A stretch of DNA of 64,000 nucleotides from Calditrichia bacterium (GCA_020634975.1 JACKAQ010000001.1:297808-361807), one strand, 5' to 3'. Shown: positions 26,268 to 41,419, counted from the first letter of the stretch. Made by a program: numbers and translations. The notes: a model not told the origin generated them from the sequence alone.

Positions 26268-26945
26268 TTATCCGCCGAACAACGCAAAACCGCGTCTCGC
26301 TTCGCGGACAAATGTTGCCACCTTTTCAGCAGATTTCCGACCGTCCTCAGCCTCGACGCCGGTGTGCACATCCACCGCAGCCGGACGAACGATGCGAATC
26401 GCATCGAACACGTTTTCGGGTGTCAGTCCGCCGGCGAGCATCAGCGGTTTTGGGGAAATCTCCACGAGTTTCCGGCTGATTTGCCAATCGTGGGTTTTCC
26501 CGGTGGCACCATCCGCGCCCGTTGCCGGATCGTGCGTATCCGTAATAAAACCATCGACCAACGGCGCGAGTGTTTGGGTCATGTTTTCCAACTCGCTCAA
26601 ATTATCCCCGCGAACGATGAGGCTTTTTAAAATAAACACATCCGGCGCGGATTTCCGCAATTGTTGCAATTCTGCAAGTTCAATATTTCCATGAATTTGC
26701 ACGGTTTTGGCGTGCAGCATTTTGCACAATTCCAAAATTTCCGCCGCCGTGTTGAGATAGGTAATCAACACGCCAGAACGATTTTCCGGTAGATTGGCGA
26801 TAATCGCCGCTGCATCTGCATCGTTGATATCTTCCGCATTTACGGTCAATCGCAGCGGAAAGCCGAGCCAATCCACGCCCGAATCGAGCAGCAGTTGCGC
26901 TTCCGCAGCATCAATGATGCCGGCAATTTGAATGATATGTTTCAT
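26268..26945 (-). CDS. trpF: N-(5'-phosphoribosyl)anthranilate isomerase
   Basis: MKHIIQIAGI...KLVEISPKPLMLAGGLTPENV is a TIM-barrel TrpF signature. The six-frame ORF runs further upstream to 27563 only because there is no in-frame stop. Confidence 0.75.
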   Translation of the reverse strand: MKHIIQIAGIIDAAEAQLLLDSGVDWLGFPLRLTVNAEDINDADAAAIIANLPENRSGVLITYLNTAAEILELCKMLHAKTVQIHGNIELAELQQLRKSAPDVFILKSLIVRGDNLSELENMTQTLAPLVDGFITDTHDPATGADGATGKTHDWQISRKLVEISPKPLMLAGGLTPENVFDAIRIVRPAAVDVHTGVEAEDGRKSAEKVATFVREARRGFALFGG

Positions 26946-27083
26946 TTCGCAAGATAAACCATTGCGGCAGAAAATACAACCGGGATTCCGCATTCGCATG
27001 CGGCAACCGTTTGCTTTTTTGCTAACGCTTAAGTAACATTTATCTTTAAATTTATTACGATAAAACAAACTGCAGCGAAGAAA

Positions 27084-28049
27084 ATGAGAACAATCTCCGA
27101 AACACAACTGGACGAAATATTTGGCATCGGCAGCGCCGTCACATTTAAACAAGTGATTGAAGAAGCGCGAATGCTGGCAAAAATTCCCCGCCCGATCATG
27201 ATTCAGGGCGAACGCGGAACGGGCAAGGAATTGCTGGCGCGCGCCATTCATTTGGAAAGCGACCGGAAAAAACAACCGTATGTTGTGGTCAATTGTGCTG
27301 CGTTTCAGGAAGATTTGTTTGCTGCGGAAATGTTTGGCCGGGAAAAAGGCGCGTACACCGGCGCTGTTGATTCGCGTCCCGGCAGACTGGAACTGGCCGA
27401 CGGCGGCACGCTGTTTTTGGACGAAGTGGCGAATATGAGCCGTGCGGTTCAGGAAAAATTGCTTCGCGTGATCGAATATCAACAATTTGAACGGCTCGGC
27501 GGCAGCAAACCGATTTCGGTGGATGTGCGGATTATTGCCGCAACCAACGCCAATCTCGATCAACTCATGGAAAAATCAGAATTTTTGCCGGATTTGTATG
27601 ACCGGTTATCGTTTGCGGTGCTCACTTTGCCACCGCTGCGAAAACGACGGGAAGATATCCCATCGCTGATCGAACACTTCATTTGTCAACTCCACAAAGA
27701 AATTCCCAACCTCGAACACAAATCGTTTACGCCTTCCGCGATTCAGGAACTCCAGAATTACCATTGGCCGGGGAACATCCGGCAGCTCAAAAACATCATC
27801 GAGCGCATTTATATTTCCGACGAAGACGGTACCATCAACGCATCGGAACTGCCGATCGAAATTACATCTGTGGAACCGATCCGCGGTAATTTCTACGAAA
27901 AAGTGCGCGCGTACGAAATCAACCTGTTGCTCAACTCGCTGAAAGATTTTGATGGCAACCAGCGCGCCGCAGCCGAAAATCTTGGGATGTCTTACGACCA
28001 GTTCCGCCACTTCTACAAAAAATACAAGTTGGAAGATTATCTGGTGTAA
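27084..28049 (+). CDS. pspF: Sigma-54-dependent transcriptional activator, AAA+ domain plus C-terminal HTH only (PspF-like, no receiver or sensor domain)
   Basis: It has Walker A (GERGTGKE), a GAYTGA loop (GAFTGA variant), Walker B (LFLDEV), an arginine finger region and a C-terminal Fis-type HTH. Confidence 0.85.
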   Translation: MRTISETQLDEIFGIGSAVTFKQVIEEARMLAKIPRPIMIQGERGTGKELLARAIHLESDRKKQPYVVVNCAAFQEDLFAAEMFGREKGAYTGAVDSRPGRLELADGGTLFLDEVANMSRAVQEKLLRVIEYQQFERLGGSKPISVDVRIIAATNANLDQLMEKSEFLPDLYDRLSFAVLTLPPLRKRREDIPSLIEHFICQLHKEIPNLEHKSFTPSAIQELQNYHWPGNIRQLKNIIERIYISDEDGTINASELPIEITSVEPIRGNFYEKVRAYEINLLLNSLKDFDGNQRAAAENLGMSYDQFRHFYKKYKLEDYLV

Positions 28050-28118
28050 AACACCGACACCGTTGGCGCAATACACCAACCCGATTTCATAAGTTCAATA
28101 AAAACAATAGATTTATTT

Positions 28119-28134
28119 TGGCATTCAGATTGCA
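28119..28134 (+). promoter_or_regulatory. Sigma-54 (-24/-12) promoter
   Basis: TGGCAT-TCAGA-TTGCA has exact consensus spacing (GG at -24, GC at -12). It lies 70 nt downstream of the activator gene and ~180 nt upstream of the next ORF. Confidence 0.55.
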
Positions 28135-28312
28135 ATATTATGGCATGAAGCCTGTGAAGGGGCTGTTAAATGACCAAAATAAATGACAATATGAAACAGA
28201 TTTCCAGAAATTGTCGGGCAGATTTTCTCACCGGAAGATTTCCGGTTTATCCGCGGCAATTGCTGAGAAATATCTTTTTCAACGAACAAGCTTGAGTTTT
28301 TTGGGGTGTGTT

Positions 28313-28732
28313 ATGGTGCAGCAAGACCGTTTTCAATATGAAATGAAGAACATTCTGGAAGCAAAAACATTGCTGGTTGTGCGGGCTGCAAAGCGCGTTC
28401 ACTACCGGTTGGGCAATGTTTCCGATCAAAAAAATTATCTGGATGCATTACAACGCGAATTTGAAGCGGATCATATTCGCTTCAAGAAAGAAGAACCGCA
28501 GCCGGAAGAAGACCTGCCCTCGCGAAGGCTAAAAAAGGATTATCTCTGCTTTGGCAACATGCTGGTGCGAACTATTAATGGTAATGTGATTCCCGAAAAC
28601 GATATTTTAAATTTTCGTAAAGAGCTGAAAAGATTAAACTTGCAATGCGGACTGATCGTAGGATTTTCGGATGACGGCATTGTCGTTGAACGGGTGACGG
28701 TTACAGAATCAAATAAACACAATTTATCCTGA
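28313..28732 (+). CDS. Hypothetical protein, first gene after the sigma-54 promoter
   Basis: It is a 139-aa ORF co-directional with the cluster. I recognise no domain. Confidence 0.4.
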   Translation: MVQQDRFQYEMKNILEAKTLLVVRAAKRVHYRLGNVSDQKNYLDALQREFEADHIRFKKEEPQPEEDLPSRRLKKDYLCFGNMLVRTINGNVIPENDILNFRKELKRLNLQCGLIVGFSDDGIVVERVTVTESNKHNLS

Positions 28733-28748
28733 GCAAACGGAGCACATC

Positions 28749-29282
28749 ATGAAAACAGTACCGCTATTTGAAGAAGAGCAGCAATTTCGCCAACCCTGGC
28801 TGATGGCGCTGCTCGGCATTACGGTGGCGCCGATTACACTGTTTTTGATTTATGTGATGATTTCGCAACTGGTTTTCGGAATTCCGGTTGGCAGCAAACC
28901 GATGCCGAACGCGATGGCCATCTGGTTCATGCCGTTGATGGTGTTGATTTGCAGCGGCATTATTTGGTTGTTTTGGAAAAGCAAATTAATCGTTCGCATC
29001 GATTCGGAAATGCTGCTTATCCGTTTTTTCCCATTCACGAAACGGGAAATACCGCTCTCGAAAATCCGGGAATTTGAAGCGCGGAAATACAATCCGCTCG
29101 GCGAATACGGTGGTTGGGGCGTACGATTGGGCTGGAAAGGCGGCAAAGCCTACACGGTCAGCGGAAATCACGGTGTTCAATTTGTGTTTCGTAATGGCGA
29201 AAAATTGTTGATCGGCTCGCAAAAAGCGACAGAATTTGAAGCTGCACTGCGGAGCGCTCTCGCTGAAAAAATAGACAAATAA
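28749..29282 (+). CDS. Membrane protein with 2 TM helices plus a C-terminal bacterial-PH-like domain (hypothetical)
   Basis: It has two N-terminal TM segments followed by a ~90-aa beta-rich domain. Confidence 0.5.
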   Translation: MKTVPLFEEEQQFRQPWLMALLGITVAPITLFLIYVMISQLVFGIPVGSKPMPNAMAIWFMPLMVLICSGIIWLFWKSKLIVRIDSEMLLIRFFPFTKREIPLSKIREFEARKYNPLGEYGGWGVRLGWKGGKAYTVSGNHGVQFVFRNGEKLLIGSQKATEFEAALRSALAEKIDK

Positions 29283-29332
29283 ATGTTTAATAATATTACA
29301 CTTACAACACTCATTTTTCGGAGGATTTTATC

Positions 29333-30055
29333 ATGAATATTTTTCAAAGAATCACAAAATTGGTCGAAGCCAACGTCAATTCGATGCTGGATAAAGCCGA
29401 AGACCCGGAAGTGATGGTTCGCCAAATCATTCGTGAAATGGAAGAAAGCATCATCGAATTGCGCCGCGAAACCGTAAAAGCCGTTGGCGCCCGCAAATTG
29501 CTGGAAAAGAAAATGCAGCTGCTCAATGAAAAATCCGCTGATCTCCAGCAAAAAGCCACACTCGCGCTGGAAAACGGAAACGAAGATTTAGCGCGCAAAT
29601 TGCTGGAACAAAAAATCGATGTCGAGAAAGAGAACAGCCAACTCGCAAATGAAGTAGAAACAGCAACTTATCTTGCCGAAAAAATGAAACAGGATTTGGT
29701 AAAACTGGAAGACCAGGTGCAAATTGCCCGTCGCCAAAAAGAGGAATTGATTCGCCGTAAACTCGCCGCCGAACGCAAAATGAACGCCACCGGCGCCATT
29801 CGCAAAACCCGCGATGCGTTGGAAGCGCTCACCGGTGCCACCAATAGTGCGGACGCGAATATCAACGCCATCGAAGCGCAAAAAGATAAAATTCTGCAAT
29901 TGGAAGCCGAAGCCGAGGCGATGGAAGAATTGATGGAAGGGAAATCCGCAGACGCCGAAAGCGAAAAAGAGCTGGAAAAAATGATCCAGAATAAAGCGGT
30001 GGAAGACGAATTGGCAAAGCTGAAAAAGATGCTCAGTGACGGCAAAAAAAAGTAG
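29333..30055 (+). CDS. pspA: PspA/IM30 (Vipp1/LiaH) family protein, paralog 1
   Basis: There is a GGAGG ribosome-binding site. The N-terminus MNIFQRITKLVEANVNSMLDKAEDPEVMVRQIIREMEE is followed by a long coiled coil, the typical PspA signature. Confidence 0.85.
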   Translation: MNIFQRITKLVEANVNSMLDKAEDPEVMVRQIIREMEESIIELRRETVKAVGARKLLEKKMQLLNEKSADLQQKATLALENGNEDLARKLLEQKIDVEKENSQLANEVETATYLAEKMKQDLVKLEDQVQIARRQKEELIRRKLAAERKMNATGAIRKTRDALEALTGATNSADANINAIEAQKDKILQLEAEAEAMEELMEGKSADAESEKELEKMIQNKAVEDELAKLKKMLSDGKKK

Positions 30056-30113
30056 CGAATTGAAACAGATCATAAAACCAATTTCGAGTAGCTAATTCAA
30101 TGGGAGAATCACC

Positions 30114-30734
30114 ATGTTAAAACTATACCTCGCCTGCCTATTATTTGGTGGCTTATTTATCATCATCTCCCTGTTTTTTGGCGCGGATGCTGACGCGGAA
30201 GCCGATGTGGATGTGGATGTTGACACTGACATCGACGTGGATACGGATGTGGAAATGGACGCCGACGCCGCAGAAGTCGAAGTTTCCGGCGAAGGTACTG
30301 TGGAAGCCATTAAATTTCTCAGCTTTCGCAATTTTGTGTTTTTTGTGGCCTTTTTCGGGCTCACCGGCAGCCTGCTCACCTGGATTGGCAGCAACTTTTT
30401 GTTGACGTTTGGCGCAGCCATTACGCTGGGATTTGTGGCGGCAACCGTTATGCATCGGGTGATGAAACAACTGGCGGCAACCGAAGTGGGCGAAACGCTG
30501 AATCTCGACCGGTTGGTTGGCATGCCGGCAAAAGTGACGATCAACGTTTCCCGGGATCATCGCGGCAAAGTATCGCTGGAAGCCGTCGGACAACGCATGC
30601 AGCTCCTCGCCCAAACGGCAGAAGAATCGGAACGCGATGAGTTCAGTGTTGGTGAATCGGTTTACATTTTGCACGTAAAAAACGGTATTGCATTTGTTGT
30701 GGAAGAAGCCTTTATCAACTCCGCAACCATTTGA
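30114..30734 (+). CDS. NfeD-like (YuaF-type) membrane protein with an acidic low-complexity linker and a C-terminal OB-fold
   Basis: It has an N-terminal TM segment, a DADAEADVDVDVDTDIDVDTDVEMDADAA tract, further TM segments and a C-terminal beta domain (KVTINVS...VGESVYILHVKNGIAFV). It lies directly upstream of the flotillin gene. Confidence 0.6.
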   Translation: MLKLYLACLLFGGLFIIISLFFGADADAEADVDVDVDTDIDVDTDVEMDADAAEVEVSGEGTVEAIKFLSFRNFVFFVAFFGLTGSLLTWIGSNFLLTFGAAITLGFVAATVMHRVMKQLAATEVGETLNLDRLVGMPAKVTINVSRDHRGKVSLEAVGQRMQLLAQTAEESERDEFSVGESVYILHVKNGIAFVVEEAFINSATI

Positions 30735-30784
30735 TCACCCGTTTATTTATAAATTCGCAGATGTAAAATAATGGAGGATGTCAC

Positions 30785-30982
30785 ATGATTACCAAAGATT
30801 ACCACCGCACATTATTTCTTTCGATGATTTTGATCGCCCTCGGTGTGTCGATTTCCACCACAATGGGGGATTCTTCGGGCACCATTGGCACGGTGATGAT
30901 CGCCGTTGGCGGCTTATTTTTTATCATCGGAATGACCAAAAGAAGAAAATTTGAACAAAAAAATCACCACCCAAAATCATAG
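30785..30982 (+). CDS. Small 2-TM membrane protein
   Basis: It has a GGAGG ribosome-binding site, 65 aa and two hydrophobic helices. Confidence 0.4.
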   Translation: MITKDYHRTLFLSMILIALGVSISTTMGDSSGTIGTVMIAVGGLFFIIGMTKRRKFEQKNHHPKS

Positions 30983-30993
30983 AAAGGTTAGCT

Positions 30994-31173
30994 ATGATAT
31001 ACGTTGGTTTACTGATTTTAGCTTATGTGGCGGTTTGTCTCTATCGCGGAAATTTGATTTGGGAATTGGGCGTTTCCCGCCGCAGTAACAGTCCTTATTT
31101 TTACTGGTTTGGTATCGGAACTTATTCGGTAGTCGCGCTGATGATGATTTACGCAGGCTACATAAATCTATAA
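30994..31173 (+). CDS. Small 2-TM membrane protein (59 aa), not in the ORF track
   Basis: An AAAGG ribosome-binding site precedes it. The sequence is MIYVGLLILAYVAVCLYRGNLIWELGVSRRSNSPYFYWFGIGTYSVVALMMIYAGYINL. Confidence 0.3.
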   Translation: MIYVGLLILAYVAVCLYRGNLIWELGVSRRSNSPYFYWFGIGTYSVVALMMIYAGYINL

Positions 31174-31228
31174 TAAACATTTGTTTGCAATTCAACTTAA
31201 CCAACTTAACTTTTAGGAGGGTTGTGAT

Positions 31229-32773
31229 ATGGATTTCATAAGTGCTATCATATTTATCGTTGTTATCCTCGCGGTTGTTGTGGTGATGATGGTCAGCCGC
31301 TTGCTGATTGTCTGCCATCCCAACGAAGTTGTGATACTTTCCGGACGCAAACGTAAACTGCCGGACGGATCGATTGTCGGTTACCGGCTCATTCGCGGCG
31401 GTCGCGCGGTGCGCATGCCGGTGCTGGAAAAAGCAGCCCGCATGTCGCTGGAATCGATTCCCCTGGAGCTTTCGGTGCGCAACGCGTATTCCAAAGGCGG
31501 TATTCCGTTGAATGTGGATGCCATCGCCAACATCAAAATTGATTCGACAGAACCGGCGTTCGGCAACGCGGTCGAGCGTTTTTTGATGAAACCGATGCAG
31601 GAAATTCACCAGATTGCGAAAGATACGCTGGAAGGTAACCTGCGCGGCGTGCTGGCATCGCTGACGCCGGAAGAAGTGAACGAAGACCGCCTGAAGTTTG
31701 CCCAAAGCCTTATCGAAGAAGCGGATAACGATTTGAACCAACTCGGTTTGCAACTCGATACGCTGAAAATTCAGAATGTCGCGGACGAAGCGGGATATCT
31801 CGATTCGATCGGTCGCCGCAAAACCGCCGAAGTGCTCTCAACCGCACGAATGGCAGAAGCCGCAAAAGCCGCCGAAGCGGAACAGGCAGAAGCGGAAGCA
31901 CGCCAGTTTGCGGAAATTGCCAAAGCCAAAGCAGATCAGGAAATTAAAGCGGCGCAAATTTCTGCGGATCGCGAAGTGAAGATGGCCAAAGCCCGCGCCG
32001 ATGCCGCAGCCCGTCAGGCGGAAGCGGAGCAGGAAGCCGTCGCAAAGGAAGCGGAAGCGACATCACTGCGGAAAGCTGAGGTCGCAAAAGCAATGGCTGA
32101 TCAGGAAATTCGCACATCGCAAATTAAGGCAGATCAAGAGGTTAAGGTATCTCGCGCTATTGCAGATCAACAGATCGAAACTGAGAACAACAATCTGCGT
32201 ATGAAAAAAGCGGAACTGGAACGCGAAGCCATTATCATGGAAAAAGAAGCGGAAGTTGCCGGACAAAAAGCCCAGGCAAAATACGAACAGGATATGGAAG
32301 AAGAACGCATTCTGCTGCAACAAAAACGCCTGATGGCAGACGTTATCGAACCCGCAAAAGCCAAAAAAGAAGCGATGGAGCTGGAAGCACGCGGCGAAGC
32401 TGCGCCGATTCTCGAGAAAGGTAAAGCGAACATCGAAGTGCTGGATCAGATGATCAAAACCTACCTCAGCGCCAAAGGTGAAGGCGAAAAAGTATTCATG
32501 CTGAACATGTTGCCGGATATTATCAAACAACTGTCCGACACGGTGAACAAGGTCACGATCGACAAAGTGAGTGTGATCGACAGCGGCGGAAACGGCAGCC
32601 ACGGCGTGGCAAATTTCATCAACCAGTTGCCCGCAGCAGTGGTTTCGCTGGCGGAACAGATCGAAAACGCCACCGGTGTGAACATCCTCAACCAGTTCAA
32701 ACAGAAACCGGAAATTGGTCAGATTGTCCACCACAACGGTGAGCACGACAAAGCGAAAGATGATGAGAAGTAG
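31229..32773 (+). CDS. floT: Flotillin (SPFH/Band-7 domain, FloT/YuaG-like)
   Basis: It has an N-terminal TM segment and an SPFH domain, followed by long Ala/Glu-rich EA-repeat coiled coils (AEAEQAEAEARQ...). Confidence 0.85.
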   Translation: MDFISAIIFIVVILAVVVVMMVSRLLIVCHPNEVVILSGRKRKLPDGSIVGYRLIRGGRAVRMPVLEKAARMSLESIPLELSVRNAYSKGGIPLNVDAIANIKIDSTEPAFGNAVERFLMKPMQEIHQIAKDTLEGNLRGVLASLTPEEVNEDRLKFAQSLIEEADNDLNQLGLQLDTLKIQNVADEAGYLDSIGRRKTAEVLSTARMAEAAKAAEAEQAEAEARQFAEIAKAKADQEIKAAQISADREVKMAKARADAAARQAEAEQEAVAKEAEATSLRKAEVAKAMADQEIRTSQIKADQEVKVSRAIADQQIETENNNLRMKKAELEREAIIMEKEAEVAGQKAQAKYEQDMEEERILLQQKRLMADVIEPAKAKKEAMELEARGEAAPILEKGKANIEVLDQMIKTYLSAKGEGEKVFMLNMLPDIIKQLSDTVNKVTIDKVSVIDSGGNGSHGVANFINQLPAAVVSLAEQIENATGVNILNQFKQKPEIGQIVHHNGEHDKAKDDEK

Positions 32774-32948
32774 GTTAAAAAAACCGCACCATCAGCATGA
32801 AACGCTTGTTCCGCGCTGATGGTGTGTTAAAACAAACGAAAACAAATATTTAGAAATACATCGAATTTTTCAAAAAATGAAAAAGAACAAGACTATTTCT
32901 GCCGGGTTGATGAAAGTATGAACAGAAAAAAACCTAAAACACTGAGCC

Positions 32949-33395
32949 GTGAAGATAGAGCTAAAAGGCGAAAAAGAGAGACTAATCAAACTCATTTTAT
33001 CAAAGCTATTCATCAGCCTTTTATTGGGGATGTTTAACGGTGCAGTTGTAGATAATATTAAAATAGGATTCTGGTCGGTTTTAATTTTCATAGCAACATT
33101 TACGGCTTCCTATTTTATTAGAAATTACATTCGTGTTCGACTTTATCTAACTGCTGTTCTATGGGGTTTGGTTTGGGGCGCATGTATGTCAGGTATCTTA
33201 ACACTCAATTATTACGGACGACATGGGTTCAGAGATGATACGATCGCATTAGCAATTATTATGCTTTTGGGTTATTCACTCATGTTCGTAATAGATATTT
33301 ATATTGGGAGACATGATTATATTAAACCAGATTTTCAGTCTTATGGTGAGTTTTACAAAAGCTGGTTCAATTATAAGTATCTTAAAAACAAATAA
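32949..33395 (+). CDS. Hypothetical 4-TM membrane protein in an AT-rich islet (GTG start)
   Basis: The ORF is 148 aa. The local GC (~33%) is far below the neighbours. Confidence 0.3.
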   Translation: MKIELKGEKERLIKLILSKLFISLLLGMFNGAVVDNIKIGFWSVLIFIATFTASYFIRNYIRVRLYLTAVLWGLVWGACMSGILTLNYYGRHGFRDDTIALAIIMLLGYSLMFVIDIYIGRHDYIKPDFQSYGEFYKSWFNYKYLKNK

Positions 33396-33427
33396 TTAGA
33401 CTCAAAATATTTGAAAGGAGCACAGTA

Positions 33428-33991
33428 TTGGGATTCACAAATTTTTTCAAAGGAAAAAAAGAAGGTGAAGAATTTGATCCACTACGGGACTTGACACTTT
33501 CAAAAATGAAGGTCGGGTATTTTGTTGAATTTGATCTGAAAACCTGGCAGGTTACCGCATACAATAAATACGATTTTGGCGACGGCTTATGGAGCGAGGA
33601 ATGGGAACTGACCTCCGGTCGCGAAAAAATCTGGCTGGAAAAACGCGAAGATGACGAAGTGGAATGGACCGTCAGCAAAAAGCTGCCAATCGGCGCAATT
33701 GCGGAAGATGTCCGCCAGCACGTCAAAGATTTCGACGATCCGCCGGGGCAAATTTCCGTGAAGGAAAAAACGTTTTATCTGGATGAATCCGGTTCGGTCT
33801 ATTATTATCCCGGTGGCAACACTCAACAACAGGGTCAGGGTATCATCGCATGGGAATATATTGATGATGACGATGAAAATTTTGTGAGCATCGAGCAATG
33901 GGGCGAGGATGATTTTGAAGCATCGCAAGGCTATTATGTGGAAGAATTTATGTTTAGCAACATCCTGCCGTCGGGGGACGCACAAGCTTGA
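33428..33991 (+). CDS. DUF4178-like protein (PspA-neighbourhood family)
   Basis: It has a TTG start after AAAGGAG. The sequence KVGYFVEFDLKTWQVTAYNKYDFGDGLWSEEWEL...IWLEKREDD fits the DUF4178 pattern as I recall it. It has an acidic C-terminus. Confidence 0.45.
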   Translation: MGFTNFFKGKKEGEEFDPLRDLTLSKMKVGYFVEFDLKTWQVTAYNKYDFGDGLWSEEWELTSGREKIWLEKREDDEVEWTVSKKLPIGAIAEDVRQHVKDFDDPPGQISVKEKTFYLDESGSVYYYPGGNTQQQGQGIIAWEYIDDDDENFVSIEQWGEDDFEASQGYYVEEFMFSNILPSGDAQA

Positions 33992-34102
33992 CGGAAGCAT
34001 GGATAAAGGATAAAGTAAATTTTTTGACTTTTTCAATATTAAACAATAAAAAACAACATTTCTAAATCAATAAAATACAAACACTTAAAAAAGGGGTTTG
34101 TT

Positions 34103-34819
34103 TTGAAAAAAACAATTACATTTGCACTTTTCGGAATTGTTGCGTTGCTGCTGTCGAGCTGCGGCGCATCGAATCCGGTTGAGAAAATGCAACGCGAGCT
34201 GGACGATTATCCGGAATATTCCATTATTCTGGAAGATATGAAAATGGAAGGCACTTTTTTTAAGGATTACTTTCATCAATATAAAATTATTCATGCGGAA
34301 AAAGCCGGTGATTCGCTGGCATATTTCACCAATCAAACAGAATGGATTTTGGTAGATGAAGATTTTTTCAGCAATTACCAACGGTATTTGGGAATGACAA
34401 TTGCATCCAAATCTGCTGAAGGTGATGTGAGCGACTCTCCGCAACCGCCGGGCTACCAATATGTTGGCGATGAACGCTACGGCCAATGGCGAACCGATAA
34501 CTCCGGCAACAGCTTTTGGGAATTTTACGGAAAATATGCCATGTTGCAGGCGCTGCTCGGCGGCTGGAATCGCCCGATTTATCAGGATGACTGGCGCGAT
34601 TACCGCACCTCCCGGCGCAACAATCAGCCGTATTTCGGCAAAAATCGCCAGTGGGGCACCGACGGAACCGCAACGAAAAAAACGAATCCAACATTTTTCC
34701 AACGCCGCCAAATGCGCGAGCAGGCGTCCAAACAATCCTTTACGGATAAGCTGAAACAACGCACACGCCGCAGTAATATGAGTAAATCCCGAAGCCGCAG
34801 CGGTGGTTTTGGAAAATAA
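34103..34819 (+). CDS. Lipoprotein with a basic C-terminal tail (possible DUF4247-type partner of DUF4178)
   Basis: It has a lipobox (LLSSC) and a Trp/Tyr-rich central region. The C-terminus is KLKQRTRRSNMSKSRSRSGGFGK. Confidence 0.5.
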   Translation: MKKTITFALFGIVALLLSSCGASNPVEKMQRELDDYPEYSIILEDMKMEGTFFKDYFHQYKIIHAEKAGDSLAYFTNQTEWILVDEDFFSNYQRYLGMTIASKSAEGDVSDSPQPPGYQYVGDERYGQWRTDNSGNSFWEFYGKYAMLQALLGGWNRPIYQDDWRDYRTSRRNNQPYFGKNRQWGTDGTATKKTNPTFFQRRQMREQASKQSFTDKLKQRTRRSNMSKSRSRSGGFGK

Positions 34820-34834
34820 ACAAATGAGGAAATA

Positions 34835-35017
34835 ATGAAACATAACGATCAAAATCAGGACAATAAAAAAGAAATGGGAAAATGGGTTGCCGTTGGCATC
34901 GCTATCGGAACGGCAATGGGCGTTTCGATGGATAATATCGGGCTTGGCATCTCGTTGGGTCTTGTGATCGGTCTGGCAATCGGCACAGTAAAATCCCGAA
35001 ATGATAAAACGGAGTAA
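34835..35017 (+). CDS. Glycine-zipper small membrane protein
   Basis: It has a GAGGAA ribosome-binding site. The sequence is WVAVGIAIGTAMGVSMDNIGLGISLGLVIGLAIG. Confidence 0.45.
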   Translation: MKHNDQNQDNKKEMGKWVAVGIAIGTAMGVSMDNIGLGISLGLVIGLAIGTVKSRNDKTE

Positions 35018-35020
35018 AAA

Positions 35021-35866
35021 ATGACTTTAGACCAAACCATATCCGGACTAATTTACCTTATTGCAGTGTTTATACTTTTTTGGCTGGGAAAAGTGGTTTA
35101 TGGAATAACCAATCCGCGCATCAATTTGCGCGATGAATTGGTGAAAAAAGATAATCTGGCGATGGCGCTGGCAGTGATCGGCTACTATTTCGGGCTGATT
35201 ATCGCGTTGGGTGGCGTGCTTTCCAGCGAATCCGCAGGATTGTTCATCGATCTGTTCGAAATATTTTTTTACGGCATTATTTCGATTGTCCTGATGAATT
35301 TTTCGATTAAAATCAATGACAAAATCATCCTCAGCAAATTTGACAATATCAAAGAAATTATCGATGATCAGAACGCCGGAACGGGCGTTGTGGAAGCGGC
35401 CAACCACATTGCTGTGGGCATGATTATCGCCGGCGCGATGAGCGGCGATTACGGCGGCTGGGCAACTGCGCTCACATTCTGGATTTTGGGACAAGCCGTG
35501 CTGATTGTCGCAGGCATTGTTTACGCCAAAATTCTGCCGTTCGATCTGCACGCGGAAATCGAAAAAGATAACGTTGCTGTGGGCGTTGCGTTTGCGGGTG
35601 TGCTGATCGCCATCGGCAACATCTTGCGCATCGGCTCCACCGGCGATTTTATTTCGTGGCAACAGAATCTCACCACGTTTTTCGGATTCGTCATATTCGG
35701 ACTGGTGCTGCTGCCGGTTTTGCGCTTTCTGACCGACAAAGTGTTGCTCCCCGGCGAAAAACTTACCGATGAACTGGTGAACCAGACAAATCCGAATATC
35801 GGTGCCGGTGCGGTGGAAGCGTTTGCCTATATCGGTGCGTCGTTTTTGATTGGTTGGGTTATATAG
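35021..35866 (+). CDS. Membrane protein with internally repeated DUF350-like units
   Basis: There are four repeats of N-x-A-x-A/G-x-x-x-x-G-x-x-I-A-x-G with TM helices: DNLAMALAVIGYYFGLIIALGG, NAGTGVVEAANHIAVGMIIAGA, DNVAVGVAFAGVLIAIGN and NIGAGAVEAFAYIGASFLIG. Confidence 0.5.
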   Translation: MTLDQTISGLIYLIAVFILFWLGKVVYGITNPRINLRDELVKKDNLAMALAVIGYYFGLIIALGGVLSSESAGLFIDLFEIFFYGIISIVLMNFSIKINDKIILSKFDNIKEIIDDQNAGTGVVEAANHIAVGMIIAGAMSGDYGGWATALTFWILGQAVLIVAGIVYAKILPFDLHAEIEKDNVAVGVAFAGVLIAIGNILRIGSTGDFISWQQNLTTFFGFVIFGLVLLPVLRFLTDKVLLPGEKLTDELVNQTNPNIGAGAVEAFAYIGASFLIGWVI

Positions 35867-35914
35867 CTGGTTTCTAGTTTCTGGTTTCTGGTTTCTGGAT
35901 TGAAGATTCTGGAT
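35867..35914 (+). repeat. Heptamer array TTCTGGT/TTCTGGA (x5, degenerate) immediately 5' of the four-helix-bundle gene
   Basis: The sequence is ctggtttctagtttctggtttctggtttctggattgaagattctggat. Confidence 0.6.
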
Positions 35915-35951
35915 GCTCTGAAAAATGTAAACTTAAGTGCAGAATGTGAAA

Positions 35952-36395
35952 ATGAGTTACAAAAAATTGCAGATATGGCAGCTATCTCGTGAAATTGTGA
36001 TTGATATTCACAAAATGACGCTGGAAACGTTACCAAAATTTGAGATGTTCGAAACAGGATCACAAATTCGCAGATCGAGCAAATCGACCAAATCTTTGAT
36101 TGTGGAAGGATACGGCAGGCGCTATTATAAACAGGATTTCATACGTTATTTATTGAATGCGCTCGCCTCTAACGATGAAACAATTGATCATTTAGAAACC
36201 CTTTTCGAAACAAAGTCTTTATCTGATTCAATTCTGTACGAAAACATACACGAACGGCTTATTTCTTTAGGTAAAATGCTCAACAATTTCATCAACTCGG
36301 TTCAAAAAAATCATCAGACACCATCGATTTATGTAAAGGAAGAAATGCCAGACTATCTGAATTTTCCGGAAACAAAAGATGACAAAACAGAATAA
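35952..36395 (+). CDS. Four-helix-bundle protein (TIGR02436, 23S rRNA intervening-sequence protein family)
   Basis: [59 protein letters not shown] matches the family. GC is ~33% against ~52% for the neighbours. Confidence 0.7.
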
Positions 36396-36451
36396 AATTT
36401 TTGCAAATATAGATTCGGAATCCAGAACTTGCGCTGAGCGCAGCCGAAGCG

Positions 36452-36481
36452 TCCAGAATCCAGAATCCAGAATCCAGAATC
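36452..36481 (+). repeat. Heptamer array TCCAGAA x4 (reverse complement of the upstream array) immediately 3' of the four-helix-bundle gene
   Basis: The sequence is tccagaatccagaatccagaatccagaatc. It is preceded by a further TCCAGAA copy and the near-palindrome GCGCTGAGCGC at 36421-36445. Confidence 0.6.
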
Positions 36482-36495
36482 TCTCCGGCAACTGG

Positions 36496-38013
36496 TTGCT
36501 GAAAGCCTGCATTTTCGCCACCGGGTTATCCGGAATTGTGGCGGAATACGTGATGTCCACGCTGGCGAGTTATCTGCTCGGTAACTCCGTTTTGCAATGG
36601 ACACTCACTATTTCCATCATGCTGTTTGCGATGGGCGTTGGCAGCCGTTTCAGCAAATTTGTGGATGACGCGTTGCTGGATGCCTTCGTTTTCACGGAAT
36701 TACTGCTCTCCGTTTTATGCGCGATCAGCGCTACAACTATCTATTTTTTATCGGCTTACATGAATCCGATAACACCGCTGATTTACACGCTGTCATTCGC
36801 AATCGGTTTGCTGATCGGGCTGGAAATTCCGCTGGCAACCCGTCTCAACGATTATTTTGAGGATTTGAAAATCAACATCAGTTCGGTAATGGAAAAAGAT
36901 TATTACGGCGCGTTGCTCGGCGGCTTGCTGTTTGCGTTTGTCGCCCTCCCCTACCTCGGTTTAACTTATACGCCCATTTTGCTCGGCGCAGTAAATTTTG
37001 CAGTCGCGGCGGCGCTATTTTGGCAGCATCGCGATTCGCTAAAATTTCCGAAAACACTCACTGCCGGATTTTTGATCGTGCCCGCCTTGCTCGGCGCATT
37101 GGCCGTTTCGGCGGAGCCGATTGTGCTGTATGGCGAGCAGCAAAAATATGTGGATAAAGTTGTTTATCAGGAGCAAACGCCCTATCAGCGAATTGTGATC
37201 ACTCAATTCAAAAATGATTACTGGCTGTATCTCAATGGAAATGAACAATTTAGCAGCTACGACGAACACCGCTATCACGAACCGCTGGTGCATCCGGCAA
37301 TGCTGGCGAGCGTTGCGCATAAAAATGTGCTGATTCTCGGTGGCGGCGATGGATTGGCTGCGCGGGAAATCCTCAAATATCCCGACGTCGAAAAAATTAC
37401 GTTGGTCGATCTCGATCCGGCGATGACGGAACTCGGCAAGAATTACCCGGTTTTTCGCCAACTCAACCAAAATGCGCTCAGCGATCCCCGGGTGCACATT
37501 CGCAACGAGGACGCATACACATTTTTGCAGCAAACCCGGGAAATTTTCGATGTGATTATTATCGATTTGCCCGACCCGAAAACCATCGAGCTGGCGCGAT
37601 TGTACACCCGGGAATTTTATCAATTGGCGAAACGTCAACTGTCCAAAGGCGGGATTGTGGTTACGCAAGCTGGCAGCCCGTTTTTTTCACGGGAAGCGTA
37701 TCTCTGCATATTGCAAACGATGCGAACTGCCGGATTGGCTGCGATTCCTTATCACAACCACATTCCAACACTCGGCGAATGGGGCTGGGTGCTGGCAATG
37801 AATGCGGAAATTGACGAAAATCGTTTGAAAAATCACCTGCTATCACTATCATTTGATGATTTGCAAACACGTTTTTTAAACCGGGACGCAATGGCGGCGA
37901 TGCTTCTTTTCGGCAAAAACGAACTGGCCGGTATCGATGCCATTCGCGTTAATTCTGAACTGGAACTCGCATTATTTGATTATTACAAAAATGGGTCGTG
38001 GGAATTTTATTGA
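36496..38013 (+). CDS. Spermidine/spermine-synthase-like aminopropyltransferase fused to an N-terminal polytopic (~7 TM) membrane domain
   Basis: The C-terminal domain has LILGGGDGLAAREILKYPDVEKITLVDLDP...DVIIIDLPDP, the SpeE fold motifs. The N-terminal 220 aa are hydrophobic helices. The start is uncertain: I use TTG 36496, and the open frame begins at 36379 inside the repeat. Confidence 0.7.
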   Translation: MLKACIFATGLSGIVAEYVMSTLASYLLGNSVLQWTLTISIMLFAMGVGSRFSKFVDDALLDAFVFTELLLSVLCAISATTIYFLSAYMNPITPLIYTLSFAIGLLIGLEIPLATRLNDYFEDLKINISSVMEKDYYGALLGGLLFAFVALPYLGLTYTPILLGAVNFAVAAALFWQHRDSLKFPKTLTAGFLIVPALLGALAVSAEPIVLYGEQQKYVDKVVYQEQTPYQRIVITQFKNDYWLYLNGNEQFSSYDEHRYHEPLVHPAMLASVAHKNVLILGGGDGLAAREILKYPDVEKITLVDLDPAMTELGKNYPVFRQLNQNALSDPRVHIRNEDAYTFLQQTREIFDVIIIDLPDPKTIELARLYTREFYQLAKRQLSKGGIVVTQAGSPFFSREAYLCILQTMRTAGLAAIPYHNHIPTLGEWGWVLAMNAEIDENRLKNHLLSLSFDDLQTRFLNRDAMAAMLLFGKNELAGIDAIRVNSELELALFDYYKNGSWEFY

Positions 38014-38089
38014 GAACCGATTGATAAACAACCTGATCAGCAAAATAAAATCGAATAGATAGAAGCCAAAAGCCAAGTGCCAAAAGCCA

Positions 38090-39100
38090 ATGAAAAATAT
38101 TGCCCATAACATTATCAAATTTGTCATCAAGGAAAACCTGCACCGCATTTTGCTGATCATGTTGTTGCTGATTGTTTTCGGTGCGGTGGGCATGGCGATT
38201 TTTGAGCCGAATGTCAATTGGGATAACGCATTGTGGTGGAGTATCGTCACGTTGACCACTGTCGGATATGGCGATATTGCGCCAACTACGTTCGGCGGGC
38301 GCATCGTTGGATCGATCATCATGATTTTGGGTATCGGCATTTTGGGGATGTTCACGGCAACCATCGCCAGCGTATTTGTGGAGCAAAAACTGAAAGTGAA
38401 TCGCGGAATGAGTAATTACGATTTCACCAATCACACGATTATTTGTGAATGGAATTATCGCGCCAAAGAAATTTTGAGAGAGCTGCGTTCAGACAGTCGC
38501 GTGCTGGATCAACCCATCATTTTGATCGCAGATATCGACGAAAAACCGGTGAATGACGAAAATCTCCATTTCATCAAAGGCGAAGTGGACGAAGCAAATT
38601 TGCAGCGCGCCAATATTGCGGCTGCAAAAACGGTCGTCATTCTCGGCGATGACAAATTGGATAACAACGCCCGCGATGCGCAAGTGGTGCTCGCTGCGCT
38701 GATTATCGAATCCATCAACCCGAGCGCTTACACAATTGTGGAATTGGTGAACGAACAAAACGTGGCGCATTGCCGTAAAGCGCATGTGGACGAAATTATT
38801 GTTTTAAATGAGTTTAGCAGCCGCCTAATTGCCCGCGCAGCGCTCGATCACGGTATTTCGAAAGTGATGAGCGAACTGCTCAGCGCCAGCACCGGCAACA
38901 ATTTGTATCAGGTGCCGGTGCCCCGCGAACTGGCAGATCAATCATTTCTGGTTGTGTTTTCGGAGATGAAACGCACCCGGAACAGCATTGTTCTGGCGGT
39001 GTATCGCCGGGATCAGGATATCGTAATTTCCAACCCGGATGTGGATTTGAAAGTAGCAGCGAACGACCAGTTGGTCATCGTTTCGCAAAACGAACAGTAA
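38090..39100 (+). CDS. MthK-like K+ channel (2TM pore plus RCK/TrkA-N domain)
   Basis: The selectivity filter is TLTTVGYGD, followed by an RCK Rossmann domain. Confidence 0.85.
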   Translation: MKNIAHNIIKFVIKENLHRILLIMLLLIVFGAVGMAIFEPNVNWDNALWWSIVTLTTVGYGDIAPTTFGGRIVGSIIMILGIGILGMFTATIASVFVEQKLKVNRGMSNYDFTNHTIICEWNYRAKEILRELRSDSRVLDQPIILIADIDEKPVNDENLHFIKGEVDEANLQRANIAAAKTVVILGDDKLDNNARDAQVVLAALIIESINPSAYTIVELVNEQNVAHCRKAHVDEIIVLNEFSSRLIARAALDHGISKVMSELLSASTGNNLYQVPVPRELADQSFLVVFSEMKRTRNSIVLAVYRRDQDIVISNPDVDLKVAANDQLVIVSQNEQ

Positions 39101-39114
39101 TTTGAGGTGATGAA

Positions 39115-39480
39115 ATGTCCCTTTTTTCGAGAATCGCAGGAATTATTCGCGCTAACCTGAATTTCCGGCGCGATGATGTTGACATCGACGATAGCGTTTA
39201 CGAAGAAATTCGTGATTCGCAGCGCGAATATCAACGCCAAAAACAGCAGCGCAACGATGCCAATCATCACCGGAATGACGATCCGTTGGCCAAACACTAC
39301 GCCAATCTTGAAGTGCCGTACGGCTCGGATCTGGAAACTGTCACCAAATCGTGGAAAGCGTTGCTGCGCAAATATCACCCGGATATTCATTCCGGCGATC
39401 CCGAAAAACAGAAAATTGCGAATCAACTTGTTCAGGAATTAAACCAATCTTATAATGAGTTGAAAAAAAAGTTACGCTAA
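39115..39480 (+). CDS. J-domain protein (C-terminal DnaJ domain) with a PspA-like N-terminal amphipathic helix
   Basis: The J domain is DLETVTKSWKALLRKYHPDIHSGDPEKQKIANQLVQELNQSY (HPD motif). The N-terminus MSLFSRIAGIIRANLN parallels MGIFSRIFKIF and MNIFQRITKLVEANVN of the two PspA paralogs. Confidence 0.65.
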   Translation: MSLFSRIAGIIRANLNFRRDDVDIDDSVYEEIRDSQREYQRQKQQRNDANHHRNDDPLAKHYANLEVPYGSDLETVTKSWKALLRKYHPDIHSGDPEKQKIANQLVQELNQSYNELKKKLR

Positions 39481-39556
39481 AAATTGATCATAAATAATTG
39501 TTTTCATTAGGATTAATCAACACAATTAATTCACTATTACAACAGGAGGCTAACGT

Positions 39557-39958
39557 ATGGCCATGTTTAGCAAATTCGAAATGGTTAAGGATTATTTAAT
39601 GGAACTCGGCTTTGCGATTATTCGCGAAGATGAGGATGAAGAGATCGTGGTTGTAAATGATCCCGATAATGGCATCAACAATATGGTCATCGATTGCGAA
39701 GACCCGATTGTGATTATGGAGCAATTGATTATGGAAGTGCCGGAAAAACCCGGTGATTTGTATGAAAAATTGCTGAAAATGAACCGCACACTGGTTCACG
39801 GCGCATTTGTGCTGGATGAAGAAGGCAAACGCGTTATTTATCGCGATACGCTGCAGTTGGAAAATCTCGATAAAAATGAGCTGGAAGCCTCGATTGTCGC
39901 GCTTTCCATGGGCATTGCAGAATTTGGCAGCGAGTTGCTGAAATACGCAAAACGCTAA
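39557..39958 (+). CDS. YbjN-like small acidic protein (candidate PspA-associated partner)
   Basis: It has an AGGAGG ribosome-binding site and 133 aa. It lies immediately upstream of the second pspA. Confidence 0.45.
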   Translation: MAMFSKFEMVKDYLMELGFAIIREDEDEEIVVVNDPDNGINNMVIDCEDPIVIMEQLIMEVPEKPGDLYEKLLKMNRTLVHGAFVLDEEGKRVIYRDTLQLENLDKNELEASIVALSMGIAEFGSELLKYAKR

Positions 39959-40021
39959 TTTTTTTATCGCTTAACTATTTGATAATATTTAATTTGAAAC
40001 CAAACTTCAGGAGATAAAAAG

Positions 40022-40741
40022 ATGGGTATTTTTTCGCGCATATTCAAAATTTTCCAGTCGGAGGCGCATTCAGTTGTGGATCAACTGGAAGATCCGATCA
40101 AATTGACCGAACAGGGCATTCGCGATTTGAAAAAAGATTTGGCGCAAGCCATGCGTAGCCTGGCGGAAGTGAAATCGTTGTCCATCCGCATGCGCAAAGA
40201 CGGCGAAGACCAGAAAAAGCTTGCTGCCGATTACGAACGCAAAGCCATGATGCTGCTCCAACGCGCCCAAAGCGGCGAACTGGACGCCGCAGAAGTTGAC
40301 CGTTTGGCAACCGAAGCGCTCACCAAAAAAGAAGATTCCTCACGCCGCGCACAGGAATTTATGACCAATCACGAGCAGCAGCAGAAAATGGCTGACCAGT
40401 TGCAGAACAAAGTGAACAAACTGAAATCTGCGATTTCCAAATATGAAAACGAGTTGGTCACTCTTCGCGCCCGCGCCCGCACTGCGGAATCGATGAAAAA
40501 AATCAACAAACAAATGGCGCAAGTTGATGCATCCAGCACCGTTGCGATGCTCGAAAAAATGAAAGACAAAGTGACCGAAGAAGAATCGCTGGCGGAAGCC
40601 TACGGCGAAATGGCCGACACAACCAAATCCGTTGACGAAGAAATTGACAAAGCGTTGGCGGGTGCGTCTGTGGATGCCGCAAAAGATTCGCTGGCAGCGC
40701 TAAAAGCCAAAATGGGCTTAAAAGAAGGCGATGCCAAATAG
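40022..40741 (+). CDS. pspA: PspA/IM30 family protein, paralog 2
   Basis: The N-terminus MGIFSRIFKIFQSEAHSVVDQLEDPIKLTEQGIRDLKKDL is followed by a coiled coil. Confidence 0.8.
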   Translation: MGIFSRIFKIFQSEAHSVVDQLEDPIKLTEQGIRDLKKDLAQAMRSLAEVKSLSIRMRKDGEDQKKLAADYERKAMMLLQRAQSGELDAAEVDRLATEALTKKEDSSRRAQEFMTNHEQQQKMADQLQNKVNKLKSAISKYENELVTLRARARTAESMKKINKQMAQVDASSTVAMLEKMKDKVTEEESLAEAYGEMADTTKSVDEEIDKALAGASVDAAKDSLAALKAKMGLKEGDAK

Positions 40742-40779
40742 TTGTTTTTTAATCAGTTGTAATTTTTTTAATAAAAAAA

Positions 40780-40808
40780 GGGGCGTATTTAACACACGCC
40801 CCTTTTTT
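40780..40808. terminator. Bidirectional rho-independent terminator
   Basis: A GGGGCGT...ACGCCCC hairpin is followed by T6. It lies between pspA2 and the convergent rfbC. Confidence 0.6.
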
Positions 40809-40858
40809 ATTCCAAATTGATTTTTTGCGAGCCACAAACAATCGTTTGCCAAAAATAC

Positions 40859-41419
40859 TCAGTATTCGGGCAACACATCTTTCGGCGCATTTTTCAACGC
40901 CGGGTGCAATTCGTCTTTCGGCGATAAAACCGGATTTACATCCAGTTGCCAGTCGATGCCAATTTCCGGATCGGACCATTGGATGCCGTATTCATCTTTT
41001 CCGTCGTAAAAATCCGTGCATTTATAGGTCACGTTCGCGGTTTCGCTGACCACGTAAAATCCGTGGGCGAATCCCGGCGGCACATAAATTTGCCATTTGT
41101 TGCGTTCGGAAAGCGTTACACCGACCCATTTTCCAAACGTTGGCGAGCCTTTGCGGATGTCCACTGCCACATCAAAAATTTCGCCGGAAACCGCCTGAAC
41201 CAGTTTGCCCTGCGGGCGTTTCAATTGATAATGCAATCCCCTCAAAATGCCTTTTGTGGAAAACGAGTGATTGTCCTGCACAAAATTTTCGCGAATACCG
41301 GCTTCGGCGTATTTTTCCGCATGAAATGTTTCCATAAAAAAGCCGCGCGGATCGCGGAACACCCGCGGCTTGATAACCAGAACTTCCGGAATTTCCGTTG
41401 GCTCAACCGTAATCGACAT
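40859..41419 (-). CDS. rfbC: dTDP-4-dehydrorhamnose 3,5-epimerase
   Basis: RGFFMETF...RGLHYQ...KLVQAVSGEIFDVAVDIR is a cupin RmlC signature. Confidence 0.9.
   Translation of the reverse strand: MSITVEPTEIPEVLVIKPRVFRDPRGFFMETFHAEKYAEAGIRENFVQDNHSFSTKGILRGLHYQLKRPQGKLVQAVSGEIFDVAVDIRKGSPTFGKWVGVTLSERNKWQIYVPPGFAHGFYVVSETANVTYKCTDFYDGKDEYGIQWSDPEIGIDWQLDVNPVLSPKDELHPALKNAPKDVLPEY

Follow-up and report, generated by a model that had tools for sequence, protein, structure and literature searches.

Organization of the locus

We analyzed a stretch of 64,000 nucleotides (nt; 64 kb) from the genome of a Calditrichia bacterium (GCA_020634975.1 JACKAQ010000001.1:297808-361807, hereafter the window), and in particular a module that combines the gene of a PspA/IM30 family protein (PspA1) with those of an NfeD-like membrane protein, two very small membrane proteins (s65 and s59) and a flotillin. 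These five open reading frames (ORFs) had been pointed out in a preliminary description of the window (29333-32773), and all were recovered in place in our six-frame ORF list; the identities proposed there for PspA, the NfeD-like protein and the flotillin were upheld by profile matches, fold and gene order. The module extends beyond the initial description, as it also comprises the gene of a PspF-like activator, a sigma-54 promoter-like sequence, two extra genes upstream of pspA and a hairpin at its 3' end. All its genes lie on the + strand, and its features, with the evidence for each, are as follows:

27084-28049, + strand: PspF-like sigma-54 enhancer-binding protein (Pfam, NCBIfam, comparison with E. 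coli PspF)
28119-28134, + strand: candidate sigma-54 (-24/-12) promoter TGGCATtcagaTTGCA (consensus match)
28313-28732, + strand: GxxExxY / PD-(D/E)XK-like protein (NCBIfam and Pfam matches below cut-off)
28749-29282, + strand: DUF6141-like membrane protein (Pfam match below cut-off)
29333-30055, + strand: PspA1, 240 amino acids (aa), PspA/IM30 family, ESCRT-III-like membrane remodelling protein (Pfam)
30114-30734, + strand: NfeD2/YuaF-type flotillin partner, 206 aa (family profile, AlphaFold fold, synteny)
30186-30281, + strand: acidic D-x-D-x tract (residues D25-E56) between transmembrane (TM) segments TM1 and TM2 of the NfeD-like protein (sequence)
30785-30982, + strand: s65, 65-aa protein with two TM segments (ORF, Shine-Dalgarno sequence, homologs)
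30994-31173, + strand: s59, 59-aa orphan with two TM segments (ORF, substitution skew)
31229-32773, + strand: flotillin (SPFH2 type), 514 aa (Band_7, human flotillin-1)
32786-32825, + strand: stem-loop just past the flotillin stop codon (folding energy, conservation in the sister genome)

The spacers that separate the PspA, NfeD, s65, s59 and flotillin genes measure 58, 50, 11 and 55 nt, respectively. Good Shine-Dalgarno sequences precede the genes of the NfeD-like protein (GGGAGA), s65 (GGAGGA) and the flotillin (AGGAGG), that of s59 (AAGG) being weaker. A terminator scan revealed no canonical or convincing intrinsic terminator between pspA and the flotillin gene, all + strand matches falling inside coding sequence. 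The stem-loop past the flotillin gene (-24.9 kcal/mol, z = -5.2 against shuffled sequences) is kept in a near-identical sister genome (locus L001; related loci are numbered with an L throughout), and beyond it the two genomes diverge completely; it is probably the 3' end of the operon. No Rfam family matched the region 26500-41000 at E <= 0.1.

PspA1, the flotillin and an NfeD2/YuaF-type partner

PspA1 matches the Pfam family PspA_IM30 over residues 2-232 (8.7e-34, 117.5 bits versus a gathering score of 33.9) and is 31% identical to E. coli PspA over its full length (3e-26), and only 25% identical to a second PspA encoded in the window (PspA2, 40022-40741). Its score of 119.6 bits lies below the cut-off of the NCBIfam PspA equivalog (242.95), and PspA1 is best classified as a member of the PspA/IM30 family, not as the enterobacterial equivalog.

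The flotillin carries a Band_7 domain (9e-13 over residues 30-223), preceded by a hydrophobic N-terminus (FISAIIFIVVILAVVVVMMV) as membrane anchor, and its C-terminus is a long coiled coil, visible in translation as an Ala/Glu-rich repeat region. It aligns with human flotillin-1 over residues 27-494 (1e-37) and with flotillin-2 (1e-23). As it scores far under the cut-off of the NCBIfam FloT equivalog (8e-55, 186.7 bits versus 700), we regard it as a flotillin-family protein rather than as a FloT ortholog in the strict sense. Counterparts that are 52-79% identical follow the NfeD gene in the closest related loci (L002-L012), the identity being lower in more distant ones.

The NfeD-like protein itself matched no Pfam or NCBIfam family, and neither NfeD nor YqiJ_N was hit even at E <= 1; because direct family scans gave nothing, its assignment rests on the profile of its family and on its predicted fold. 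Seventeen of 29 family members match Pfam NfeD (PF01957) weakly (best 2e-5) and six match YqiJ_N (PF21001), and the family profile matches the soluble domain of B. subtilis YuaF (3.5e-6). The AlphaFold model (predicted local distance difference test score, pLDDT, of 80.5) comprises three helices (residues 2-23, 71-90 and 95-124, pLDDT around 90), a beta barrel (138-196, strands with pLDDT >90) and a disordered stretch (26-58). Its top four Foldseek matches are all NfeD proteins (YbbJ 8Z5G, 1.5e-5; YuaF 2K14, 6.7e-5; PH1510-C 3WWV; 3CP0). At least two TM segments were also detected in 116 of 120 homologs by a hydropathy scan. With a three-TM bundle, a C-terminal OB-fold barrel and a co-oriented SPFH gene directly downstream, the protein has the hallmarks of a short NfeD. 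It appears to be an NfeD2/YuaF-type flotillin partner, to which E. coli YqiJ would be only remotely related (BLASTP not significant). A copy identical to this protein has been deposited from a metagenome-assembled genome (MAG) of a Calditrichia bacterium.

A gene order shared by several phyla

We collected 57 related loci by scanning species-representative genomes for the NfeD family, using a close alignment as query (a first, more diverse NfeD alignment had failed as a query, as it held no conserved stretch). In 54 of them, a flotillin gene is located downstream of NfeD. The search for one gave no match in L013, L027 and L031, and the contigs of L027 and L031 stop shortly after the NfeD match. 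PspA immediately precedes NfeD in 13 of the 57 loci, on the same strand in 11 and divergently in two (L010, L027). The same-strand cases belong to Calditrichia/Calditrichaceae (L001, L003, L004), a "Deltaproteobacteria" MAG (L005), Omnitrophota (L006), Syntrophobacteraceae (L007), Acidobacteriota (L009, L021, L024) and uncultured bacteria that carry no finer label (L002, L020). A PspF-like gene is found upstream of PspA in nine loci (L001, L002, L004-L006, L009, L020, L021, L024), and no conserved genes were found downstream of the flotillin across the related loci. The core of the module, as deduced from this comparison, is (PspF)-PspA-NfeD-flotillin.

An acidic loop marks a large NfeD subfamily

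The NfeD-like protein carries an acidic tract that had been noticed at the outset (residues D25-A53), with 18 Asp/Glu and no Lys/Arg among residues 25-64, and the comparison with homologs confirmed that it is a genuine feature. In homologs from different phyla, Asgard archaea among them, an alternating Asp-hydrophobic run of variable length connects TM1 to TM2; its composition is conserved, whereas its length and sequence are not. At least eight Asp/Glu are present in this loop in 114 of the 116 homologs with two detectable TM segments, where composition and periodicity are kept (medians over the 116: 16 Asp/Glu, 0 Lys/Arg, 11 DxD motifs). A profile search for this acidic-loop NfeD family returned 7,752 representatives of 50%-identity clusters at E <= 0.001, 655 of them at E <= 1e-30; the tract is missing from E. 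coli YqiJ. The acidic loop thus marks a large NfeD subfamily and is not peculiar to the protein of the window. As it is also present in members that have no PspA neighbour, it belongs to the biology of NfeD and flotillins rather than to that of PspA.

The OB domains of NfeD proteins and the SPFH domains of flotillins are cytoplasmic. Given this, and given that Lys/Arg residues flank the start of TM2 and follow TM3 in the NfeD-like protein, the acidic loop is predicted to lie on the cytoplasmic face of the membrane. We found no description of the tract in the searchable literature; the one paper retrieved for DUF1449 was unrelated.

A PspF-like activator and a candidate sigma-54 promoter

The first gene of the module encodes an AAA+ domain (Pfam Sigma54_activat, 1e-61) followed by a Fis-type helix-turn-helix (HTH_8), with no N-terminal sensory domain. 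Its best NCBIfam match is phageshock_pspF (9.7e-106), it is 44% identical to E. coli PspF (2e-88), and its sigma-54 contact loop reads GAYTGA instead of GAFTGA. It thus has the make-up of PspF, namely a bacterial enhancer-binding protein (bEBP) that consists only of the AAA+ sigma-54 domain and a helix-turn-helix, encoded close to pspA along with a sigma-54 promoter-like site. This site, TGGCAT-N5-TTGCA at 28119, starts 70 nt past the pspF stop codon and is the sole match with at most one mismatch to the scanned consensus (TGGCAC-N5-TTGCW) in the whole window. In L001-L005 and L009, comparable GG-N10-GC sites occupy the interval that separates PspF from the first gene of the operon; no sigma-54-like site with up to two mismatches was detected in L006, L007 and L021. 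We predict that 28119-28134 functions as a sigma-54 promoter. No PspB or PspC domain was detected by Pfam and NCBIfam in any ORF of 27084-33395, the rest of the genome not having been searched.

Comparison with known systems

The association of PspA with flotillin and NfeD has already been published, and the Calditrichota operon extends a known type of module to a new lineage. PspA was reported together with Band_7/FloT, NfeD and HTH regulators in Acidobacteriota (Popp et al., 2022; PMC9239133), and Ravi et al. (2024; PMC11237479) described PspA operons that also encode a TM-band-7-flotillin protein and a 3TM protein of the YqiJ/YuaF type. The passages describing these neighborhoods report the same three protein types in one operon, and our Acidobacteriota loci L009, L021 and L024 share the order PspF-PspA-NfeD-flotillin with the window. 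The type presented by Ravi and colleagues in these passages contains a CesT/Tir-PspA dyad, often with an AAA+/beta-propeller ATPase (PMC11237479), whereas PspA1 has neither and is preceded instead by a PspF-like activator and a predicted sigma-54 promoter. The window further differs from the neighborhoods described in both sources by its extra lineage-specific genes (GxxExxY, DUF6141-like, s65, s59), and the relevant passages do not name Calditrichota.

The NfeD-flotillin part resembles the SPFH2-NfeD2 operons, which were defined with yuaF-floT and yqiJK and shown to co-evolve (Hinderhofer et al., 2009; PMC2636767). As in B. subtilis yuaF-floT(yuaG)-yuaI and E. coli yqiJ-yqiK, an NfeD with three TM segments and an OB fold is encoded directly upstream of a flotillin, and both the family profile and the fold of our NfeD match YuaF. 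The resemblance to E. coli yqiJK is more distant, as there is no significant pairwise similarity to YqiJ and the window flotillin is 18% identical to YqiK; moreover, YqiJ has no poly-(Asp-x) loop, and the yuaF and yqiJK operons carry no PspA. Co-assembly of NfeD with SPFH proteins has been demonstrated in the E. coli QmcA-YbbJ cage (PDB 8Z5G), and S. aureus FloA and NfeD co-oligomerise and act under stress (PMC11222466). Such a co-assembly is supported for the window proteins by the fact that the best structural match of the NfeD-like model is precisely the YbbJ of QmcA-YbbJ, although QmcA is a stomatin-type (SPFH1) and FloA a FloA-type partner, and neither system has an acidic loop or a link to PspA.

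The PspA part has a parallel in B. subtilis pspA-ydjGHI (samGHI), a stress-induced operon that joins PspA to an SPFH protein and small membrane proteins, and in which the SPFH protein YdjI is needed for the formation of PspA membrane foci and for PspA recruitment (Scholz et al., 2021; PMC8581546). YdjI is itself soluble and is anchored through YdjG/YdjH, whereas the SPFH protein of the window is a true flotillin with its own membrane anchor and an NfeD partner, and pspA-ydjGHI is under sigma-W where the window operon is predicted to be under sigma-54/PspF. With E. coli pspF/pspABCDE the window shares a bEBP free of sensory domain near pspA, a sigma-54 promoter (here predicted) and a PspA at the 31% identity given above. 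It departs from that system in that pspF is co-directional and not divergent, no PspB, PspC, PspD or PspE is encoded in the operon, W56 of PspF is not conserved, and the GAFTGA motif is altered as described.

A proposed stress operon and its alternatives

On balance, and with moderate confidence, we interpret the locus as a PspF/sigma-54-type envelope-stress operon that co-produces PspA with an NfeD-flotillin scaffold, by which PspA is plausibly positioned. The PspF-like activator, lacking a sensory domain of its own, would drive the predicted promoter at 28119-28134, giving rise to a single transcript that would extend to the hairpin at 32786-32825 and cover the genes of the GxxExxY and DUF6141-like proteins, PspA1, the NfeD2/YuaF-type protein, s65, s59 and the flotillin. 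By homology, flotillin and NfeD would assemble together at the cytoplasmic side of the membrane and build an SPFH cage or scaffold, to which NfeD would contribute three TM helices, an OB-fold domain and a polyanionic cytoplasmic loop. PspA1, made simultaneously, would polymerise on damaged membrane; it might be recruited or positioned by the flotillin scaffold, by analogy with PspA and YdjI in B. subtilis, and may also feed back on the PspF-like activator. A link between PspA and flotillin had been suggested in the preliminary description, and it gains support from the 13 loci found in several phyla, from the published operons as far as the cited passages describe them (PMC9239133, PMC11237479) and from the YdjI precedent (PMC8581546).

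Several observations weigh against this interpretation. PspA is not adjacent in about 34 of the 47 NfeD-subfamily loci that have enough upstream sequence. The junction between PspA and NfeD is interrupted in close relatives, by a 193-aa ORF resembling an IS200/Y1 transposase in L001 (9426-10007) and by a 464-aa ORF with no Pfam match in L002 (3606-5000), and is occupied by spacers of 300-400 nt in L003-L005, so that a tight translational or stoichiometric coupling of PspA to NfeD is not required. The hairpin has no U-tract on the + strand, and its function as a terminator is for this reason only inferred. Finally, the PspF-like protein scores below the NCBIfam PspF equivalog cut-off (353.8 versus 443.55 bits), and a Lys aligns with W56 of E. 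coli PspF. In the E. coli protein, W56 is the residue used for PspA binding. The score and this replacement make the PspA-PspF feedback doubtful, and it may not apply here.

Alternatively, PspA1 and NfeD-flotillin could be independent membrane-protective effectors placed under a shared stress promoter, with neither contact between them nor dependence of one on the other. This co-regulation is the main rival to our interpretation, and we hold it to be a real if less probable possibility. It is favored by the many NfeD-flotillin loci of the subfamily that have no adjacent PspA, by the tolerance of the PspA-NfeD junction for unrelated insertions and long spacers, and by the situation in B. subtilis, where sigma-W targets both floT and pspA, which are encoded at different loci (PMC8581546). 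It accounts less well for the recurrence of the same gene order in at least four phylum-level groups, and an interaction between PspA and an SPFH protein has been shown experimentally in B. subtilis (PMC8581546).

A more specific version of the scaffold can be imagined. If NfeD were stoichiometric with flotillin, tens of acidic loops would line up as a dense polyanionic ring beneath the patch of membrane caged by flotillin. Such a ring might bind Mg2+, Ca2+ or polyamines, or dock the basic amphipathic N-terminal helix of PspA, and NfeD-flotillin would then be a platform, and possibly a sensor replacing PspB/C, for PspA polymerisation in these phyla. We consider this elaboration unlikely as it stands. 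With respect to polyamines, a Psp module linked to them is encoded close by in the window (see below).

The NfeD-flotillin pair, perhaps with the DUF6141-like protein, could also act purely as a sensor that replaces PspB/PspC and frees the PspF-like activator from PspA1, without being itself a repair scaffold. Such a role would suit the activator, which requires control in trans for want of a sensory domain, and would agree with the finding of no PspB or PspC domain in any operon ORF and with the conservation of the membrane partners beside PspA. However, the residue through which E. coli PspF contacts PspA is not conserved, nothing known of flotillins or NfeD points to bEBP signalling, and PspB/C could be encoded elsewhere in the genome; a sensor role of this kind therefore appears distinctly improbable to us.

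The small membrane proteins s65 and s59

The two ORFs between the NfeD and flotillin genes, each with two hydrophobic segments, had been put forward as possible unannotated accessory subunits. That they look like real translated genes is borne out by their comparison with L001, in which both are intact. Changes in s65 amount to three synonymous and one nonsynonymous, and those in s59 to nine synonymous and six nonsynonymous (P=0.002, with a skew in the annotated frame only); taken together, 12 of the 19 substitutions are synonymous (P=1.7e-4), and the skew is gone in the other two frames. The term "unannotated" does not apply, as both already exist as NCBI hypothetical proteins (e.g. MCB0264604.1, MCB0264605.1).

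A role as dedicated accessory subunits of the NfeD-flotillin or PspA complex is very unlikely in our view. Their position inside the operon with short spacers, the good Shine-Dalgarno sequence of s65 and the purifying selection on both genes relative to L001 would be in line with it. In contrast, looking for them in the homologous loci showed that among the 57 only L001 has both, the other 56 having neither. Across 54 loci, the median distance from the NfeD to the flotillin gene is about 25 nt, and a gap of about 495 nt is seen only in the window and L001. A homolog search with s59 returned only its own 90% cluster (a species cluster), which makes it an orphan. For s65, we found 22 homologs with 42-85% identity and invariant motifs ILIALG and IAVGGLF, forming a family of compact two-TM hairpin proteins of about 60 aa that occur in varied, mostly unrelated contexts.

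In three of the eight contexts of s65 homologs that were looked up, the gene lies downstream of a stomatin-type gene, and these three represent one synteny group: in the Saprospiraceae-like loci L058 (4055-5189), L067 (45-1066) and L069 (1057-2073), the s65 homolog is found 30-158 nt directly downstream of a 262-aa stomatin-type SPFH gene, whose product has its own TM anchor; an NfeD gene is not seen in these loci. No further SPFH adjacency was found for the s65 family and, although this one would speak for a subunit role, we treat it as a weak lead and not as subunit evidence. None of 26 metagenome loci with s65 homologs (by tblastn or by Pfam scans of 20 neighboring ORFs) had an SPFH or NfeD neighbor, nor did the remaining contigs that we inspected, and a general link of the s65 family to SPFH was rejected on this count and given the unrelated nature of the other contexts. 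Judging from their distribution, s65 and s59 are lineage-specific, recent local additions and not conserved core subunits. That they are spurious and make no protein at all, as their shortness and hydrophobicity and the weak Shine-Dalgarno sequence and missing homologs of s59 might suggest, is most improbable given the frame-specific synonymous skew, their integrity in L001 and the good conservation of the s65 family.

Two further observations concern the s65 family. In six metagenome contigs (L071, L072, L078, L081, L083, L090), the s65 homolog is paired with a conserved upstream four-TM membrane protein of about 155 aa that belongs to no Pfam family and whose copies are 65-89% identical. Two database variants of s65 from other assemblies (P0134, P0136) are frameshifted, one being a 100-aa read-through and the other having an altered C-terminal half; they may be assembly errors or reflect an occasional disruption of s65 in natural populations.

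Additional genes and a second Psp module

Two genes separate the candidate promoter from pspA. The first one after the promoter encodes a protein with matches to NCBIfam GxxExxY (4.9e-5) and Pfam PDDEXK_3 (1.1e-3), both under the cut-off, and has a counterpart at the same position in L002-L005. In these Calditrichaceae-type loci the GxxExxY-like proteins are only 32-37% identical, versus 75-79% for the flotillin, a disparity that points to either fast evolution or repeated insertion of this gene. The second encodes a membrane protein in which two TM segments are combined with a beta-rich domain at the C-terminus, and which resembles DUF6141 (Pfam 1.5e-5, 25.3 bits versus a 27-bit cut-off). It is kept upstream of PspA in L001 (95% identity), L003 and L004 (47-50%) and is absent from L002 and L005. 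The PspA-NfeD junction, for its part, is an insertion hot spot in the relatives, and spurious ORF translations from the L003-L005 spacers (e.g. RVIRFAVICLRRQLCSAR in L003) hint at internal repeats.

Past the hairpin, the window (32826-33428) and L001 (12700-12980) carry a strain-variable spacer, which encodes a 148-aa four-TM protein in the former (32949-33395) and consists of an unrelated, shorter sequence in the latter. A second Psp-type module follows directly downstream (33428-40741, + strand), with genes in the following order: DUF4178; lipoprotein-like 238-aa protein; 60-aa TM protein; double-DUF350 protein; four-helix protein of the 23S rRNA intervening sequence (23S-IVS) type; TM-fused spermidine-synthase-like protein; RCK K+ channel; J-domain protein; CesT_Tir_1; PspA2 (40022-40741). 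This module matches the second, polyamine-linked operon type in the account of Ravi et al. (2024; PMC11237479), which in the passages concerned comprises DUF4178, a lipoprotein, DUF350 and a 7TM-spermidine synthase beside CesT/Tir-PspA. It adjoins the flotillin module only in the window and L001. We rejected the idea that this DUF4178-SpeE cluster is part of the flotillin module, because the two are unlinked outside the sister genome and are separated by the hairpin and the strain-variable spacer.

Within the second module, the 121-aa J-domain protein (39115-39480, + strand), whose gene is the second one ahead of PspA2, combines a C-terminal DnaJ J-domain (Pfam 5e-8) with an N-terminus (MSLFSRIAGIIRANLN) similar to the N-terminal helix motif of PspA (in PspA1, MNIFQRITKLVEANVN). 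It could recruit Hsp70 to PspA polymers; the passages of Ravi et al. (2024; PMC11237479) on these operons make no mention of DnaJ or Hsp70. The 23S-IVS (four-helix bundle) gene (35937-36395, + strand), located between the DUF350 and spermidine-synthase-like genes, extends 17 nt beyond the listed start of the latter and has the highest synonymous divergence (dS) of the cluster relative to L001 (0.55).

Implications

The acidic poly-(Asp-x) loop, as the mark of an NfeD subfamily, is the most useful new detail to emerge from this locus, and offers a concrete element to mutate. The presence of s65 and s59 illustrates that such operons pick up lineage-specific mini membrane proteins, and calls for caution against reading every small ORF embedded in them as a subunit. 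More generally, the locus adds a clean Calditrichota example, headed by a PspF-like activator and a putative sigma-54 promoter, to the published PspA-flotillin-NfeD operons, and the recurrence of this gene order in several phyla strengthens the case for ESCRT-III-like PspA proteins and SPFH scaffolds cooperating in bacterial membrane maintenance.

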